Assembly: GCF_003334255.1 (NCBI RefSeq)
Contig: NZ_QOWU01000093.1
From: Escherichia coli
GTDB lineage: Bacteria > Pseudomonadota > Gammaproteobacteria > Enterobacterales > Enterobacteriaceae
Direction: 5' to 3' (one strand)
DNA length: 7,900 nt
Both the position numbers and the translations under genes were made by a program. Of this stretch, positions 1,057-7,900 are shown piece after piece (position 1 is the stretch's first letter; each line of letters opens with the position of its first letter). A model generated the notes under the pieces. That model did no database searches. It had not been told where the DNA came from and saw only the letters and a list, made by a program, of their open reading frames with translations.

Positions 1057-1839
1057 TCATTCGTCTTCTGAATCAGGTGTAATGATCTTTACAGAAGCAT
1101 TCCGGCAGTGCGTAACATAATCTGCCGGTAACGGACGCTCGCTAATCAGAACATCAAATGCAGAGAGCGGTGCGAGGCTGGCAGAGGCTACTTCATCGAA
1201 CAAGGCGTGGCGGGCGAGCAAAATTTTCCTTAGTCCACGGGCCATCGCTTTACGCTTAGTGGCAAGATCTTCGGGATTAAACCAGCTGACGCCAAAGTGA
1301 TCATGTACACCGCTGGCGGAAATAAATATTTTTCGCGGATTGAGAGAGTCTAATGGCGAAGAGTTACTGGCATCGTAAAAAGCATCACTTCTGGCACGAT
1401 ACGTACCACCACAAAGTATTGCTGTCACATTAGGTTTTTCATTCAACGCAACAAAGACACGATGTGAGTAACAGATGCCAGTGAAGGTGATTGCATCCGG
1501 GATCATGCTTATAACGAGCGGTATCTCCTGGCCATTATCAAAGAAGATCAGATCATTTTCATTAACCATTCCGGCGGCCAGAATTGCAATAGGTAAGTCA
1601 TCACGATGATTTCTCGGAACGTCCTGGATTACTGGCATGGATGGTGCGGGTTTATGCACCATTACAATATAGCCACCCAGTAGGGTCAGTGGCAGAGGTT
1701 CATCTTCCTGATGGAGATCGCGACGAATAGTCATTACAGAAACTTCCAGCATTCGTGCCGCGTCTTTCAAATGGATTCTGTCGGTTTTCTTAAGTATTTC
1801 AATCAAACGTCGGATACGCTCTTTTTGCTTCGTTTCCAT
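1057..1839 (-). CDS. deoQ: DeoR-family transcriptional repressor (N-terminal HTH, C-terminal sugar-phosphate-binding domain); likely deoxyribose operon regulator DeoQ
   Basis: N-terminus METKQKERIRRLIEILKKTDRIHLKDAARMLEVSVMTIRRDL closely matches my recollection of E. coli DeoR (METRREERIGQLLQELKRSDKLHLKDAAALLGVSEMTIRRDL). ATG is the complement of 1837-1839, with GGAGAG upstream on the minus strand; the ORF track starts one codon earlier at TTG (1840-1842). Divergent from a kinase-permease operon, as in deoQ/deoKPX. Confidence 0.85.
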   Translation of the reverse strand: METKQKERIRRLIEILKKTDRIHLKDAARMLEVSVMTIRRDLHQEDEPLPLTLLGGYIVMVHKPAPSMPVIQDVPRNHRDDLPIAILAAGMVNENDLIFFDNGQEIPLVISMIPDAITFTGICYSHRVFVALNEKPNVTAILCGGTYRARSDAFYDASNSSPLDSLNPRKIFISASGVHDHFGVSWFNPEDLATKRKAMARGLRKILLARHALFDEVASASLAPLSAFDVLISERPLPADYVTHCRNASVKIITPDSEDE

Positions 1840-1856
1840 CAACTCTCTCCGTAAAA

Positions 1857-1872
1857 TGTTATAAAAATAACA
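1857..1872. promoter_or_regulatory. DeoR-type operator-like palindrome TGTTA-N6-TAACA (TGTTATAAAAATAACA) next to the deoQ start
   Basis: A perfect 8-bp inverted repeat AATGTTAT/ATAACATT lies at 1855-1874. The core has the same half-sites and spacing as the E. coli DeoR operator consensus as I recall it (TGTTAGAATTCTAACA). It sits in the deoQ-deoK divergent intergenic region. Confidence 0.45.
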
Positions 1873-2082
1873 TTATGGCATTAGTAAACATTGTTTTAGT
1901 TACCATACTATACGACCGACCCTTTGAAATGAAAAGGGTATAGCCTGCTGAATTTTCGGTATTAATCCTGTTAGGTTGCTTATGATTAGATAGTGTTGGC
2001 CTGAGTGATAAGACTGGAAGTCTATTAAATAAACATCGGGTTGATGTGCTAATCGCGATCTCAGTCACAAATGATGCAAAAG

Positions 2083-2098
2083 TAACATACCAATGTTA
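2083..2098. promoter_or_regulatory. Second palindrome with the same half-sites in everted order (TAACATACCAATGTTA), about 45 bp upstream of the deoK ATG
   Basis: The inverted repeat TAACAT/ATGTTA is read directly from the sequence. A further TTGTTAT half-site lies at 2110-2116 and an AACATTGTT element at 1887-1895. Candidate DeoQ operator cluster. Confidence 0.35.
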
Positions 2099-2141
2099 TT
2101 TAAATACCATTGTTATGCGAAAGTTTATAAGAGGTAGTGAA

Positions 2142-3077
2142 ATGGACATTGCAGTTATTGGTTCCAATATGGTGGATCTCATTACTTACACTAATCAGAT
2201 GCCTAAAGAAGGAGAAACTCTGGAAGCACCTGCCTTCAAAATCGGATGTGGTGGGAAAGGTGCTAATCAAGCGGTGGCGGCGGCTAAATTGAATTCAAAA
2301 GTCCTGATGCTGACTAAAGTAGGTGATGATATTTTTGCGGATAATACTATTCGTAATCTTGAATCTTGGGGAATTAATACCACTTATGTTGAGAAAGTCC
2401 CCTGTACCAGCAGTGGTGTTGCGCCGATCTTTGTTAATGCTAACTCGAGCAATAGTATTTTAATAATTAAGGGGGCGAATAAATTTCTTTCCCCGGAAGA
2501 TATCGATCGAGCTGCAGAAGATCTGAAAAAATGCAAATTGATCGTTTTACAACTGGAAGTTCAACTGGAAACAGTTTACCACGCGATTGAGTTTGGTAAG
2601 AAAAATGGTATTGAAGTGTTATTAAATCCGGCTCCGGCATTGCGTGAGTTAGATATGTCTTATGCCTGCAAATATGATTTCTTTATCCCGAATGAAACAG
2701 AACTGGAAATATTAACCGGTATGTCGGTTGATACTTATGATCATATTCGTTTGGCCGCACGTTCGTTAGTTGATAAAGGGCTGAACAATATTATTGTTAC
2801 CATGAGCGAAAAAGGCGCATTATGGATGACCCGTGATCAGGAAGTCCATGTTCCTGCATTCAAAGTAAATGCTGTTGATACTAGTGGCGCTGGTGACGCA
2901 TTTATTGGTTGCTTTTCCCATTATTATGTTCAAAGCGGTGATGTTGAAGCCGCTTTGAAAAAAGCCGCTTTGAAAAAAGCCGCTCTCTTTGCCGCTTTCA
3001 GCGTCACAGGGAAAGGTACGCAATCATCTTATCCGAGTATTGAACAATTTAATGAATTTTTAACCTTAAACGAATAA
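2142..3077 (+). CDS. deoK: Ribokinase/PfkB-family sugar kinase, likely deoxyribokinase DeoK (311 aa from this start)
   Basis: Start MDIAVIGSNMVDL with SD AAGAGG at 2129-2134, 7 nt upstream of the ATG at 2142. Ribokinase motifs GCGGKGANQAVAAA and DTSGAGDAFIG are present. The ORF-track start at 2046 has no SD and adds a non-conserved leader, so I prefer 2142. Context: divergent DeoR-like regulator and a downstream FucP-like permease. Confidence 0.85.
   Translation: MDIAVIGSNMVDLITYTNQMPKEGETLEAPAFKIGCGGKGANQAVAAAKLNSKVLMLTKVGDDIFADNTIRNLESWGINTTYVEKVPCTSSGVAPIFVNANSSNSILIIKGANKFLSPEDIDRAAEDLKKCKLIVLQLEVQLETVYHAIEFGKKNGIEVLLNPAPALRELDMSYACKYDFFIPNETELEILTGMSVDTYDHIRLAARSLVDKGLNNIIVTMSEKGALWMTRDQEVHVPAFKVNAVDTSGAGDAFIGCFSHYYVQSGDVEAALKKAALKKAALFAAFSVTGKGTQSSYPSIEQFNEFLTLNE
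2949..2985 (+). repeat. Perfect 15-bp direct tandem duplication (GCCGCTTTGAAAAAA x2, plus a partial third copy GCCGCTC) inside deoK, in frame
   Basis: Read directly: unit 1 is 2949-2963 and unit 2 is 2964-2978, giving AALKK-AALKK-AAL in the protein, C-terminal to the GAGD motif. Confidence 0.95.
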
Positions 3078-3104
3078 TCATCCTGCACAGTTAAAGGTAG
3101 CACT

Positions 3105-4421
3105 ATGAACGATAAAAACATCATTCAGATGCCTGATGGGTATCTGAATAAGACCCCCTTGTTCCAGTTTATTTTGTTATCGTGTTTATTCCCGCTATGG
3201 GGATGCGCAGCTGCATTAAATGACATATTAATCACTCAATTCAAAAGTGTATTTTCGCTAAGTAAATTTGCTTCAGCATTGGTGCAGAGCGCATTTTATG
3301 GAGGTTATTTTTTAATTGCAATACCAGCATCCCTTGTGATTAAAAAGACCAGTTATAAGGTGGCAATTTTAATTGGCCTGACGCTGTATATTGGTGGTTG
3401 TACACTTTTTTTCCCTGCCTCGCATATGGCAACCTACACTATGTTCCTTGCGGCTATTTTTGCGATTGCGATTGGCCTGAGCTTCCTTGAAACTGCAGCG
3501 AACACATACAGTTCGATGATTGGTCCAAAAGCCTACGCTACATTGCGGCTCAATATCAGCCAGACCTTTTATCCGATTGGTGCTGCGTCTGGTATTTTAT
3601 TGGGCAAATATCTGGTTTTCTCCGAGGGGGAAAGCCTTGAGAAGCAGATGTCCGGAATGAACGCCGGGCAAATTCACAACTTTAAGGTGCTGATGTTAGA
3701 GAACACCCTTGAACCGTATAAGTATATGATTATGATTCTGGTTGTGGTCATGGTGTTGTTCCTTTTAACCCGCTTCCCAACCTGTAAAGTGGCACAGACA
3801 AGTCACCATAAACGCCCGTCAGCAATGGATACGCTGCGCTATCTGGCTAGAAATCCGCGCTTTCGTCGTGGTATTGTGGCTCAATTCCTTTATGTGGGTA
3901 TGCAGGTCGCAGTATGGTCATTTACCATCCGTCTGGCGCTGGAGTTGGGCGATATCAACGAACGTGATGCTTCAAACTTCATGGTCTACAGCTTTGCCTG
4001 CTTCTTTATTGGCAAGTTTATAGCCAACATCCTTATGACACGTTTTAATCCGGAAAAAGTCCTGATTCTCTATTCCGTTATAGGGGCGCTGTTTCTGGCA
4101 TATGTTGCACTGGCTCCAAGTTTCAGTGCGGTCTATGTCGCCGTCCTGGTAAGTGTTTTGTTTGGCCCTTGCTGGGCGACGATCTATGCAGGAACACTGG
4201 ATACAGTTGATAACCAACATACAGAAATGGCAGGAGCAGTCATTGTTATGGCTATTGTTGGCGCAGCGGTGGTTCCGGCAATTCAGGGATATATTGCAGA
4301 TATGTTCCACTCACTACAGCTTTCATTCCTGGTTTCTATGCTCTGTTTTGTCTATGTCGGTGTCTACTTCTGGCGTGAAAGCAAAGTACGTAATGCACTG
4401 GCTGAAGTCACAGAGTCCTGA
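3105..4421 (+). CDS. deoP: MFS transporter of the L-fucose:H+ symporter (FucP) family; likely deoxyribose permease DeoP (438 aa)
   Basis: Strong resemblance to FucP as I recall it (ALNDILITQF versus NNLNDILLPQF; SAFYGGYFLIAIPASLVIKK versus SAFYFGYFIIPIPAGILMKK), and hydrophobic throughout. SD AAAGG is upstream; the gene starts 27 bp after the deoK stop. Confidence 0.9.
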   Translation: MNDKNIIQMPDGYLNKTPLFQFILLSCLFPLWGCAAALNDILITQFKSVFSLSKFASALVQSAFYGGYFLIAIPASLVIKKTSYKVAILIGLTLYIGGCTLFFPASHMATYTMFLAAIFAIAIGLSFLETAANTYSSMIGPKAYATLRLNISQTFYPIGAASGILLGKYLVFSEGESLEKQMSGMNAGQIHNFKVLMLENTLEPYKYMIMILVVVMVLFLLTRFPTCKVAQTSHHKRPSAMDTLRYLARNPRFRRGIVAQFLYVGMQVAVWSFTIRLALELGDINERDASNFMVYSFACFFIGKFIANILMTRFNPEKVLILYSVIGALFLAYVALAPSFSAVYVAVLVSVLFGPCWATIYAGTLDTVDNQHTEMAGAVIVMAIVGAAVVPAIQGYIADMFHSLQLSFLVSMLCFVYVGVYFWRESKVRNALAEVTES

Positions 4422-4432
4422 GGAGAATCGTT

Positions 4433-4969
4433 ATGAGTACGCGTATTTATTTGTGGCGGGCGCTTTTTGGCGAAAAACCTCGTATCTTGCTGGAAAATAG
4501 TGATTTTACTGTCACGTCTTTTCGCTATGACAGTGGTGTCGAGGGGCTTAAAATTGCAAACAGTCGTGGACATTTAATTATTCTTCCCTGGATGGGGCAG
4601 ATGATTTGGGATGCGCAATTTGATGGACACAGTCTCACCATGTGCAATATGTTTCGCCAGCCTAAACCGGCGACAGAGGTGATAGAAACCTATGGCTGTT
4701 TTGCCTTTCATTCAGGTTTGCTGGCTAATGGCTGCCCATCTGCGGAAGATACTCATCTGCTACACGGTGAAATGGCCTGTGCCGCGATGGATGAAGCATG
4801 GATGGAATTAGAGGGAGATATGTGACGCCTTACCGGGCGTTACGAGTATGTAAAGGGATTCGGGCATCATTATCTGGCTCAGCCAGCAGTGGTCCTTCAC
4901 AAATCCTCTACACTGTTCGATATTAAGATGGCCGTAACCAATCTGGCTTCTGTAGATATGCCACTACAA
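4433..4969 (+). pseudogene. deoX: deoX-like gene (putative aldose-1-epimerase/mutarotase-like), disrupted by an in-frame TGA at 4823-4825 and 3'-truncated by the IS66-family terminus
   Basis: ATG 4433 with SD AGGAG overlaps the deoP stop (translational coupling). The 130-aa ORF ends at TGA, but the same frame stays open for 48 more codons (RLTGRYEYVKGFGHHYLAQPAVVLHKSSTLFDIKMAVTNLASVDMPLQ) up to stops that overlap GTAAGCG at 4970-4975. HLLHGE and VTN...P segments loosely resemble aldose-epimerase-family proteins such as YphB; that family assignment is tentative. Confidence 0.55.
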
Positions 4970-5001
4970 TAGTAAGCGGCTCGCCAGAACCGTCTTAATA
5001 T

Positions 5002-5183
5002 TTACTGAGAGCTCAGATCAACTTTCCAGGGCAACAGATCGCGTACCCGATTTGCCGGCCAGTCCTGGATATGTTCAATGACGTAACGCAGCCATTTTTC
5101 TGGCTCTACATTGTTCAGACGGCATGTGCCGATCAGCGAGTACAACACCGCCGCATGTTCGCCACCGCTGTCGGAACCCGCGA
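5002..5183 (-). CDS. tnpC: IS66-family transposase TnpC, 3' exon (C-terminal 60 aa: (F)AGSDSGGEHAAVLYSLIGTCRLNNVEPEKWLRYVIEHIQDWPANRVRDLLPWKVDLSSQ)
   Basis: Hand translation of the minus strand. It joins in frame to the upstream exon across the proposed intron, using T at 7008 plus TC at 5183-5182 to form the Phe codon. It is not in the ORF track because it has no start codon of its own. Confidence 0.75.
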
Positions 5184-5186
5184 GTC

Positions 5187-5222
5187 GAGTCAGCCGGAGA
5201 GAATTTCACTCCCCGGCTGCTC
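5187..5222 (-). ncRNA. Group II intron domain VI with bulged branch-point adenosine (plus 5190, 7 nt from the 3' splice site)
   Basis: Minus strand GAGCAGCCGGGGAG / loop UGAAAUU / CUCUCCGGCUG-A-CUC forms a 14-bp helix with one bulged A, followed by GAC and then the exon. Confidence 0.6.
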
Positions 5223-5225
5223 ACG

Positions 5226-5259
5226 GAACCGTACGTGACACTCTCGCGTCATACGGCTC
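5226..5259 (-). ncRNA. Group II intron domain V (catalytic hairpin)
   Basis: Minus strand GAGCCGUAUGACGCGAGAGUGUCACGUACGGUUC: 34 nt with the AGC triad at positions 2-4, a 2-nt bulge on the 3' strand, a GAGA (GNRA) tetraloop and G-U wobbles at the canonical places. It starts 4 nt after the IEP stop. Confidence 0.88.
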
Positions 5260-5263
5260 TTGA

Positions 5264-6496
5264 TCACTCATTCGATGCACGTAGTAAATACCAGTGGACA
5301 AATAGCTTCGGATACTCCTTCCTTACCAGCGTCAGCTTTCGCTGAGCCCTCCGGTTCGAAAGTCTGTATTTAGACTGCATCCACTTGAGCAGACGTGACT
5401 GCATTGCACTCCACAGTCGATAGTTGAAATTTCTGGACCAGAACTTTCCGTAGTACTCGATCCAGCCTCTCACTATCGCATTGTAGCGCCTCGCAAAATC
5501 CAGCAAACTCTCAGCTGTTGAGCGATGTATACGCCACTTCTTGATTGTTTCTGTTATTTTGCGCATTGCTGCATTTGACGCACCCGGCATGCATTTTCGG
5601 TACAGTTCGCCTTTGAAATTCTTCAGCGTACGCACTTTGAAGTCATATCCGAGAAAGGTGAAACTCGTTGCGACGTTTCTCCTTTTAAACGTGTCAATGT
5701 AGGCGATATTCGTTTTCCCTGCATTCAGGACCAGCCCGACTTCCGAGAAGCGCTCCGATAACCTGTTCTTCAGCCTTGTTGCATCACTCATTCGTGAACA
5801 ATGTACTACAATATCATCAGCGTACCTCTCAAACGGTACCCCCCGATATTCTCTTTCCATCCACAAATCAAATGCATAGTGAAGGAACAAGTTAGCAAGT
5901 AGCGGACTAATGACCCCGCCCTGCGGAGTGCCTCGTGTTCGGGTTATTAATTCTCCATTTTCACAACTCTGCATTGGTGCTTCCATCCAGCGTCGACAGT
6001 ACAGGATGACCCATTTAGGCATCCCGTGGTGTTCCAGTGCTTTGAGCACCAGATCATGTCTCACATGGTCGAAAAACGCACTGATGTCCACTTCCAGTAT
6101 CCAGCTATAACGCCAGCACCGGATGGCACATTGTTTCAGAGCGTCATGAGCTGATTTGCCTGGTCGGTAACCATAAGAATCAGCATGGAAAATCGGGTCA
6201 AGCTTTTCTTCCATAAAAAGTTTTATCGCTCCCTGAGCAATTCGATCGGATACTGTTGGGATCCCCAGAATGCGCTCCTTGCCATTCGGCTTCGGGATCC
6301 GTTTTTCCAGCACAGGTGGCGGAAACCATGTTCCCGAACATAGCCGGTTCCAGATCTTGTATAGATTGCCATCACGTTGCTGGTCGAACATTTTCAAAGT
6401 CTGTCCGTCGCATCCGGGGGCTCCCTTGTTGCGACGCACATCCAGATATGATGCCCAGACCAGTGCTTTTGGTATTTCGAATGATTTTCGTTGCAT
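5264..6496 (-). CDS. Group II intron-encoded reverse transcriptase/maturase (410 aa; RT domains 0-7 plus X/maturase domain, no recognisable C-terminal DNA-binding/endonuclease extension)
   Basis: RT motifs are present: NKGAPGCDG (RT0), GIPTVSDRIAQ, YGYRPGKSAHDAL, TPQGGVISPLLANL and YADD (plus 5813-5824). The maturase motif RGWIEYYG follows. ATG start at 6494-6496; the reading frame is intact. Confidence 0.92.
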   Translation of the reverse strand: MQRKSFEIPKALVWASYLDVRRNKGAPGCDGQTLKMFDQQRDGNLYKIWNRLCSGTWFPPPVLEKRIPKPNGKERILGIPTVSDRIAQGAIKLFMEEKLDPIFHADSYGYRPGKSAHDALKQCAIRCWRYSWILEVDISAFFDHVRHDLVLKALEHHGMPKWVILYCRRWMEAPMQSCENGELITRTRGTPQGGVISPLLANLFLHYAFDLWMEREYRGVPFERYADDIVVHCSRMSDATRLKNRLSERFSEVGLVLNAGKTNIAYIDTFKRRNVATSFTFLGYDFKVRTLKNFKGELYRKCMPGASNAAMRKITETIKKWRIHRSTAESLLDFARRYNAIVRGWIEYYGKFWSRNFNYRLWSAMQSRLLKWMQSKYRLSNRRAQRKLTLVRKEYPKLFVHWYLLRASNE

Positions 6497-7007
6497 CAGT
6501 TACATCATCCCCTTATGGGTTGTGTCTTTTGCAATGAATGTGATCCCCATCCCTTCGCTCCAGACCCATTACAGATCTTTCATCACTACTACGAATGGGT
6601 CCGCCCCTGTTTCCCGATACGTGCCGGAAACAGGTTCTCACGTTCCCTGAGATGGTCTGGCCCGGGATCCTGCTGCCTTAACACCGGATGCCGCGCAGTC
6701 AGTAAGCAGGTGTCTTCTGCGCTTATCAGAGGACGGCTGTACGGCCCCATTTTGACATCATCTAAGATTTCGATGCTTCATCGGACAGTTTACTTTCGTT
6801 CAGCTTCCCGAACCCCACGTGACAGTAGATCTCTGCCTTTTCCCGAGTCGCTCACCACTACATTCCTTAGAATGAAGCAGCACCGGGTCGTTTGGTCAGT
6901 GTTCCTGCAAACCCTGACCGGAGGGCCCACCTCCACCCACCTCAGAGCATGGATAACTTATGCTGCAATTTTCATATTGCCGCTATCAGTTCTCCTTCGT
7001 GACACAC
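6497..7007 (-). ncRNA. Group II intron domains I-III (and the start of IV), 5' ribozyme portion
   Basis: Position and length fit, being about 0.5 kb between the 5' GUGUG and the IEP start. The internal secondary structure was not resolved by eye. Confidence 0.55.
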
Positions 7008-7823
7008 ACAACCAGTTCTTCCGGCCCACGGCCACACCCCGTAAGGCGTTCTCTGCGATGTTGTTGTCGATTTCCACCCAGCCATTGCTGCAGTACACGT
7101 TCAGGGCCTCCCACTGTTTCAGCAGGTATGCGAACGCTTTCGCCGTATCCGAGTGACGCGACAGGGTTTTCATCTTTTCACGCAGCCAGCTTTCCAGGGA
7201 TTTCAGCAGCGGTTTCGTTTTCAACTGACGTTCGGCAAGGCGCTGCTCCGCCGTCATTCCCCTTATCTCTGCCTCGATGGCGTACAGTTCGCCGATCCGT
7301 TTCAGCGCTTCCTCCGTCAGGGCTGACGGGGTGCGAACGTGCACATCGTGGATTTTACGGCGGGCGTGAGCCCAGCAGGCGGCTTCCGTTATCCGGCCAT
7401 CCCGGTACAGCTCGTTGAACCCGGCGTATGCATCCGCCTGCAGTACACCACTGAACCCCGCAAGATGGGTCTGCGGATGGATGCCTTTTCTGTCCGGGCT
7501 GTAAGCGAACCACACCGCCGGCGCCAGCGTTGACCCGGCGTTACGGTCGTCACGAACGTAGGTCCATAACCGCCCGGTCTTCGTTTTCTTATTGCCTGGC
7601 AACAGCACCGGGACAGGCGTGTCATCAGCATGGAGCTTACCGTCAGTCAGCACATAGTCCTGAAGCGCTTCTTCCAGCGGTGACAGTAGCCGGCAGCATG
7701 CATCCACCCAGCCCGACAGCAGTGAACGACTCAGCTCCACACCTTGCCGGCCGTATATTTCTGACTGGCGATACAGCGGGGTGTGCTCTGCATACTTCGA
7801 GGTCAACACGCGGGCCAGCAGCC
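7008..7823 (-). CDS. tnpC: IS66-family transposase TnpC, 5' exon (central region, N-terminally truncated)
   Basis: Translation ...[34 protein letters not shown]...[20 protein letters not shown] matches the IS66 TnpC pattern. ORF-track entry 6958..7809 is this frame reading 16 codons into the intron before a stop. No IS66-like coding continues beyond 7823. Confidence 0.75.
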
Positions 7824-7900
7824 CATAAGCGCTAACTTAAGGGTTGTGGTATTACGCCTGATATGATTTAACGTGCCGATGAATTACTCTCACGATAACT
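7824..7900. mobile_element. Probable IS186-like (IS4-family) terminal region abutting and truncating the IS66-family tnpC
   Basis: CATAAGCGCTAACTTAAGGGTTG at 7824-7846 matches my recollection of the IS186 terminal inverted repeat. It is preceded by a GC-rich stretch (GCGGGCCAGCAGCC), in keeping with the GC-rich targets I recall for IS186. The tnpC frame hits a stop at 7837-7839. This rests on memory only. Confidence 0.45.

Follow-up and report, generated by a model that had tools for sequence, protein, structure and literature searches.

The Escherichia coli group II intron E.c.I3, so named in the Zimmerly group II intron database, is a catalogued element: Leclercq and Cordaux list positions 4007952–4009775 of NC_008253 (E. 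coli 536) as copy E.c.I3-2b, assign it to class D, and give IS679 as the target of E.c.I3 (Tables S2 and S3 in PMC3522654). The intron Sh.dy.I1, carried by plasmid pSD1_197, appears as D192 in Toro and Martinez-Abarca's table of class D introns, and according to the naming rule of the database, an intron with >95% nucleotide identity to a reference copy is given the same name (PMC3552965). The intron-encoded proteins (IEPs) of class D end with a C-terminal motif, LX3AX3PXLF[V/A]HW (PMC4615759).

The locus of interest lies in a 7,900-nt stretch of E. coli DNA (contig NZ_QOWU01000093.1; hereafter, the window), and all of the intron and IS66 features described below are found on the minus strand. 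We conclude with high confidence that the intron in the window is E.c.I3, of bacterial class D (IIB3), that the copy is intact, and that it interrupts an IS66-family transposase gene in the sense direction, between the first and second bases of the phenylalanine codon in the sequence GRKNWLF. The element, its class D label and its preference for IS66-type targets have all been catalogued, and so the finding itself is already known and ordinary. The listed target, IS679, is an IS66-family element too. To these published facts we make two minor additions: a stop codon that lies within the closing helix of domain IV, with covariation support, and that is invariably separated from domain V by 4 nt; and an indication that the intron can use more of the IS66 family as targets than a single IS.

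Comparison of the window with E. coli 536 by ungapped BLAST gave 97.7% identity over 2001 nt, including the flanks; over the 1824-nt intron itself the identity is 98.0%, and the window intron maps base for base onto NC_008253 4007952–4009775. Identity with Sh.dy.I1 on pSD1_197 is 98.4% over 1788 nt. With 98.0% identity to the 536 copy, the window intron falls within the naming rule for E.c.I3. It also shares the fixed site of that element: the copies in the window, in 536, on pSCU-106-1 and in EC2 are all found at GRKNWL/F in an IS66 tnpC gene (here and below, the slash marks the point of insertion). The complete intron occupies positions 5184–7007, beginning with GUGUG at the 5' end and finishing with GAC at the 3' end, as determined by BLAST against E. 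coli 536 and by inspection of the ligated exons.

The host is an IS66-family tnpC gene. Its 5' exon (7008–7846; truncated at its 5' end near 7846) ends with ...GRKNWL and the first base of the Phe codon, and its 3' exon (5002–5183) encodes the remainder of the protein (..FAGSDSGGEH..SSQ, then the stop codon), the IS66 element itself ending at about 4972. Joining the two flanks restores a single IS66-family transposase reading frame that ends in SSQ and a stop codon, with an expected ligated exon junction of ...AACUGGUUGU/UCGCGG.... A 300-nt query made of the ligated exons matches uninterrupted IS66 transposase genes of the "ISCro1 family" at 99.7%, with no gap, which fixes the junction to the base. 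No terminator-like site was found between 6900 and 7300. Insertion inside a coding sequence, as the original prediction had proposed, is therefore borne out, and more precisely the intron interrupts an IS66-family transposase gene in frame.

Several features of the surrounding DNA were observed along the way. The similarity to IS66 tnpC runs out at about 7846, and what is left of the tnpC frame is preceded by an in-frame stop, so that the element lacks tnpA, tnpB and the first third of tnpC. A few E. coli records have a diverged IS66 fused at this position to the IS4-like element IS421, and the last 54 nt of the window (7847–7900) are probably the end of an IS421-like element. On the other side, the left flank (1057–4971) is a sugar-utilisation island, 98.5% identical to E. 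coli chromosomes, which encodes a DeoR-family regulator (minus strand), a ribokinase-like kinase, a FucP-like permease and an aldose-1-epimerase-like gene; it resembles the deoxyribose island (deoQKPX) known from pathogenic E. coli. Positions 2947–2984, close to the 3' end of the ribokinase-like gene, consist of a perfect 15-nt tandem repeat in 2.5 copies, AAGCCGCTTTGAAAA, which encodes ...AALKKAALKKAAL...; the reference match in E. coli BH100N is 15 nt shorter here, and so the window contains an extra, in-frame copy of five amino acids. The aldose-1-epimerase-like gene (4433–4972), which encodes 337 aa in the E. coli reference, is interrupted at about 4972 by the IS66 end and, in addition, contains a premature stop at 4825, making it a pseudogene in the window.

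The intron has the make-up of a six-domain group II ribozyme: a 34-nt domain V, a bulged A in domain VI, and matches to both Rfam RF00029 and Rfam RF01999. The conserved core of domain I (6818–6934) matches RF01999 with 93.4 bits (E=1.2e-18), a family that is likewise detected in E.c.I9 and in a rhizobial intron of the RmInt1-like kind. In the comparative alignment, the closure of domain III at intron nt 462 is backed by strong covariation. Domain V, GAGCCGUAUGACGCGAGAGUGUCACGUACGGUUC, covers positions 5226–5259 and was located by RF00029 and RNA folding; the RF00029 match, which encompasses domains V and VI, scores 57.1 bits against a gathering score of 40 (E=1.7e-9). Folding of 5262–5184 with RNAfold places domain VI at 5184–5222, with a single bulged A at 5190. 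This residue is 7 nt from the 3' splice site, and is the candidate branch point in the folded model.

Target recognition can be partly reconstructed. EBS1, ACAGCC, lies in a hairpin loop at 6735–6740, and IBS1, GGUUGU, is formed by the final 6 nt of the 5' exon (7008–7013). The two were assigned by their pairing with each other, by the position of the junction (for IBS1), and by homology comparison with an RmInt1-like intron, in which EBS1 occupies the same position. In the window, the EBS1/IBS1 interaction consists of five Watson–Crick pairs and one G.U pair; in pSCU-106-1 and EC2, IBS1 is GGCUGU and all six positions pair with EBS1. The stem of the EBS1 hairpin covaries. A search for EBS2, as 4–8-nt complementarity between exon positions -25 to -7 and intron nt 100–400, found no candidate that is consistent across seven aligned relatives, E.c.I9 and the RmInt1-like intron. 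Two weak candidates were noted (intron nt 194–198, GGUUC, and intron nt 203–207, the latter by homology with the RmInt1-like intron), neither of which is conserved across the relatives. With EBS2 not convincingly located and EBS3 not found, the three-part target pairing typical of IIB introns is only partly demonstrated.

The IEP is encoded at 5264–6496, as an open reading frame of 410 amino acids and a UGA stop, identified from Pfam, NCBIfam and the translation. Pfam detects a reverse transcriptase domain (RVT_1; aa 67–285, positions 5642–6298, E=4.7e-41), which includes the motif YADD (aa 225–228, positions 5813–5824), followed by a maturase, or X, domain (GIIM; aa 311–385, positions 5342–5566, E=4.5e-14). 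The NCBIfam model for group II intron RT/maturases, TIGR04416, matches aa 11–376 with 394.7 bits against a cut-off of 300, and profile positions 2–352 of 353 are covered. RVT_1 and GIIM alone were detected by Pfam, with no HNH or zinc-finger match at E<=10; similarly, no endonuclease or DNA-binding domain was found by Pfam and NCBIfam at relaxed thresholds. The original prediction of a reverse transcriptase and maturase with nothing further, and with no recognisable zinc-finger or HNH tail, accordingly holds up, as it does against a profile search for a degenerate endonuclease domain. Neither is there a longer protein that could be restored by a frameshift: the distance from the stop codon to the 3' end of the intron is 82 nt, consisting entirely of domains V and VI, and thus there is no room for a hidden or frameshifted endonuclease domain.

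Some further observations concern the beginning of the IEP gene. In E. coli 536, pSCU-106-1 and EC2, the corresponding ltrA features are annotated by PGAP as pseudogenes ("incomplete, missing N-terminus"), with a start 90 nt too late. The 410-aa reading frame is full length when judged against TIGR04416 and against its own family, and the pipeline annotation as an N-terminally incomplete pseudogene looks like an artefact. Just 5' of the AUG of the IEP (6497–6520; intron nt 488–511) there is a Shine–Dalgarno-like AAGGGGA, followed by a two-codon mini-ORF (AUG AUG UAA) and then CUG AUG; a GAGGA box 8–12 nt ahead of the start codon is kept in relatives. This region may be part of the protein-binding subdomain IVa.

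The tail of the IEP is informative as to class. The protein ends ...LFVHWYLLRASNE, and aa 388–402 (5291–5335), LTLVRKEYPKLFVHW, correspond to the class D C-terminal signature as defined in PMC4615759. Written out as L-TLV-R-KEY-P-K-L-F-V-H-W, the tail has the expected residue at seven of the eight specified positions of the motif, with R in place of A, and is followed by eight conserved residues, YLLRASNE. When the A position is left free, the motif is present in 107 of the 120 closest homologues listed, 102 of which end exactly eight residues past it (typically in YLLRASNx); in the relatives inspected by eye, the "A" is likewise not A. Hence, the stretch in which the original prediction saw no zinc finger is itself the class D signature.

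Protein similarity points in the same direction. By BLASTP, the IEP is 46.7% identical (362 bits) to an RmInt1-like rhizobial protein of 419 aa that carries a perfect class D motif, and 44% identical (320 bits) to the IEP of E.c.I9, also class D; against E.c.I4, of class A, the values are 28.8% and 126 bits. Among proteins with solved structures, the best matches are to class C reverse transcriptases (155 bits for the GsI-IIC RT and 136 bits for 7uim, which we take to be the E. rectale IIC RT), ahead of the 6me0 maturase RT (110 bits; presumably a CL-class IEP) and LtrA (105 bits; ML). We know of no solved class D structure with which the IEP could be compared. By this score proxy, which stands in for a tree and covers classes A, C, CL and ML but not E (the sister of class D), the IEP would group with class D. 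The endonuclease-bearing classes (CL1, CL2, ML and B) were rejected, there being no C-terminal HNH or DNA-binding match and no coding room past the stop. The original prediction had left the class unresolved; it can be settled as class D (IIB3), given that the same element is already published under this class, both as E.c.I3 (Table S2 in PMC3522654) and as Sh.dy.I1, and given that the tail quoted in the prediction holds the class D motif.

Two other accounts of this small IEP were weighed. The protein could be the remnant of a longer, endonuclease-bearing protein of class CL, ML or B that has lost its tail by deletion or frameshift, and its short length is the sole support for this account, together with the PGAP flag of incompleteness in other genomes, which is, however, placed at the N-terminus and not at the C-terminus. 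Set against it are the 82 nt of domains V and VI after the stop; the lengths of the relatives' proteins, which are mostly about 409–433 aa among the 120 homologues listed, with RVT_1 (with or without GIIM) as their only domains bar two stray extra Pfam hits; the recurrence of the same C-terminal motif, with the same eight-residue ending, in those homologues; the near-complete coverage of TIGR04416; and an N-terminus that aligns, from residue 4 onward, with residue 9 onward of the 419-aa class D protein. We regard a truncated remnant as very improbable, and conclude that the IEP never possessed a DNA-binding/endonuclease module. Much the same verdict applies to the suggestion that the element is a class C (IIC) intron, the other common class of small, endonuclease-less introns in bacteria. 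Introns of this class find their target through a stem-loop in the DNA, settle behind terminators or attC sites, and lack EBS2. While the size of the IEP, its want of an endonuclease domain and its top solved-structure matches (GsI-IIC RT and 7uim) would suit class C, the scores against class D proteins are more than double, the C-terminus bears the class D motif, and the same element has been published as class D. Further, the intron interrupts a coding sequence in frame with no terminator-like hairpin within 300 nt upstream, a context that argues against class C, and all ten of the relatives with a usable 5' or 3' flank lie in IS66 coding sequence rather than after hairpins. On the basis of insertion context, C-terminal motif and score ratios, the class C reading was dropped as having next to no chance of being correct, in agreement with the original prediction, where it was considered unlikely. 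The assignment to class D is retained below.

A different doubt attaches to the activity of the window copy: the element may be E.c.I3, but this copy could be a stranded passenger, no longer transcribed, spliced or mobile, in an IS66 deprived of its 5' part and its promoter. The host element has no IS66 sequence upstream of about 7846 (with tnpA, tnpB and the first third of tnpC gone), and so expression would depend on read-through transcription. The distribution of the intron leans the same way. Part of the intron is found in 167 of 5426 complete E. coli genomes and a full-length copy in 56; intron-bearing genomes have the intron in a median of one place, many contain fragments only, and most of the places are on plasmids. 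Uninterrupted target junctions are far commoner, being present in 1686 of these genomes (counting matches that cover at least 80% of the junction query). Against stranding, the reading frame is intact and includes YADD, all of the ribozyme elements examined are conserved, identical or nearly identical copies in three different IS66 genes point to very recent mobility of this sequence variant, and read-through transcription could still give expression. We consider a stranded copy unlikely, though considerably less so than either of the accounts in the previous paragraph; the question bears on the activity of the copy and not on its identity as E.c.I3.

The copies in other genomes deserve closer description. 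The intron on pSCU-106-1 (NZ_CP053235.1) is 100% identical to that of the window, with a 5' exon that is only about 76% identical; the intron on the E. coli EC2 chromosome (NZ_CP058571.1) is 99.9% identical, with a 5' exon at about 82% and a 3' exon that cannot be aligned. That is, the closest intron matches carry flanks unlike those of the window, and the exact window junction is absent from the complete E. coli genomes searched. The presence of identical introns at the same codon of diverged hosts indicates, as far as sequence comparison goes, that the intron moved recently by itself, through retrohoming or an equivalent transfer, and was not inherited together with one IS. It also suggests that the usable range of targets in the IS66 family is wider than a single IS. 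If so, earlier counts of homing sites, which were made at >=90% similarity to one IS, would underestimate the target pool, a point of possible interest for the modelling of intron and IS dynamics.

More distant relatives (67–82% protein identity) were found in Pectobacterium, in marine gammaproteobacterial genomes, in a Candidatus Uhrbacteria assembly and in metagenomes. Wherever a flank was recovered, these lie in IS66-family transposase genes, and the readable 5' junctions are all at the same codons, ...AAYUGGCUNU/U.... A speculative reading would make the GRKNWLF codons of any IS66-family transposase a near-universal landing pad for this lineage across distant bacteria. Were it true, E. coli would offer the intron far more targets than the literature's picture of "IS679 only, sites saturated" allows. 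A separate observation was made on a Rhizobium sp. T1470 plasmid (NZ_CP148092.1, positions 28–2685), where a group II ORF with a missing 5' part and a D-like tail comes after a complete IS66-type tnpC, and domain I of a second intron (RF02005) comes directly after the first; the two introns seem to be nested or arranged in tandem.

We turn now to the position of the IEP stop codon, which the original prediction had placed 4 nt from domain V. The spacing is as described: UGA at 5266–5264 is followed by UCAA at 5263–5260, and domain V begins at 5259. The structure of domain IV accounts for it. Domain IV opens, directly after the end of domain III, with GAUCAC (intron nt 463–468; 6540–6545), the 5' strand of its closing helix. 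The 3' strand, G-UGA-UC (intron nt 1741–1746; 5262–5267), combines the third base of the last sense codon with the stop codon and the two leading bases of the spacer; the remaining AA, at 5261–5260, is the junction between the domain IV helix and domain V. The gap is 4 nt long, then, because the stop codon sits in the 3' strand of the closing helix and a 2-nt junction follows. Both strands were assigned by covariation: across 11 distinct introns of the lineage, 98.5% of cells in the helix are paired (compared with at most 41% in slid-register controls), and three of the six pairs show compensatory double changes. An attempt to pair the segments before and after the ORF with RNAduplex returned one uninformative pseudo-duplex of 118 nt, and the comparative alignment was used instead.

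A UGA stop and a gap of exactly 4 nt are found in all 11 lineage introns, whose proteins range from 67 to 100% identity. Among other endonuclease-less introns the gap ranges from 0 to 5 nt: it is 3 nt in E.c.I9 (class D), 3 nt in the RmInt1-like Neorhizobium intron (D-like, with a perfect class D motif), 0 nt in the Rhizobium sp. T1470 intron (D-like by its C-terminal tail, with a 5'-truncated ORF), and 5 nt in E.c.I4 (class A). Compact spacing is therefore a real feature of the window intron but no peculiarity of it, being invariant in the lineage and common in endonuclease-less classes; we consider it real, explained and ordinary, and normal for class D.

Two bolder ideas can be built on these observations, and we see only a slim chance that one or the other is right. 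Either the fixed layout of stop codon and helix goes beyond an economy of dual coding and is a built-in switch, by which a transcript is translated or folded for splicing but never both at once, or the GRKNWLF codons of IS66 are indeed the near-universal landing pad mentioned above. Under the former, termination at the UGA would oblige the ribosome to unwind the closing helix, and the 5' strand of domain V would lie within the ribosomal footprint.

The window intron has an intact RT–maturase reading frame, a complete ribozyme, a junction that restores the host frame and an EBS1/IBS1 pairing, and its population pattern is typical of a mobile element. The IEP reading frame fills the loop of domain IV completely, with the UGA forming part of the closing helix. 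By analogy with RmInt1 and its relatives (PMC4615759), we infer a similar retrohoming route. The IEP, once made, would assist splicing and remain on the lariat, and the lariat RNA would reverse-splice into a target recognised mainly through EBS/IBS pairing. Without an endonuclease, cDNA synthesis would be primed from nascent lagging-strand DNA at the replication fork.

How, then, does this intron compare with known systems? Class C introns, such as GsI-IIC and E. rectale IIC, resemble it in having a small RT–maturase without endonuclease, and provide its best matches among solved structures. They differ in that they sit after terminator or attC hairpins, whereas the window intron lies within a coding sequence and has a class D tail, and the window IEP reaches against class C half the score that it reaches against class D. 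E.c.I9 and E.c.I2 are other E. coli class D introns, found in Rhs/ISEc1-type elements, and have homing sites that differ from that of the window; E.c.I9 shares with the window intron its class, the RF01999 match and a short gap between stop codon and domain V (3 nt), at 44% protein identity.

Parallels are also found in RmInt1 of Sinorhizobium meliloti, the prototype of class D/IIB3, and its relatives. Like the window intron, they have an RT-X protein of about 410–419 aa without the D/En domains, the class D C-terminal motif, EBS1 in the same position, and the habit of homing into insertion sequences; their stop codon, too, can lie within a few nucleotides of domain V (3 nt in the Neorhizobium intron). 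They differ in protein sequence (about 47% identity), in the A of the motif consensus, which is R in the window, and in target, which for RmInt1 is ISRm2011-2 and for the window intron IS66 tnpC. The closest described system of all is E.c.I3 itself, as found in E. coli 536 and ED1a and, under the name Sh.dy.I1, on Shigella dysenteriae pSD1_197. These copies are 97.7–98.4% identical to the window intron and share with it the 1824-nt length, the boundaries, the RT-X protein, the insertion point and the class D label. The differences lie in the host: the 5' exon of the window is only about 74–76% identical to those of 536 and pSCU-106-1, marking the window host as a different IS66 member, and IBS1 reads GGUUGU in the window as opposed to GGCUGU or GGCUCU in the E.c.I3 copies.
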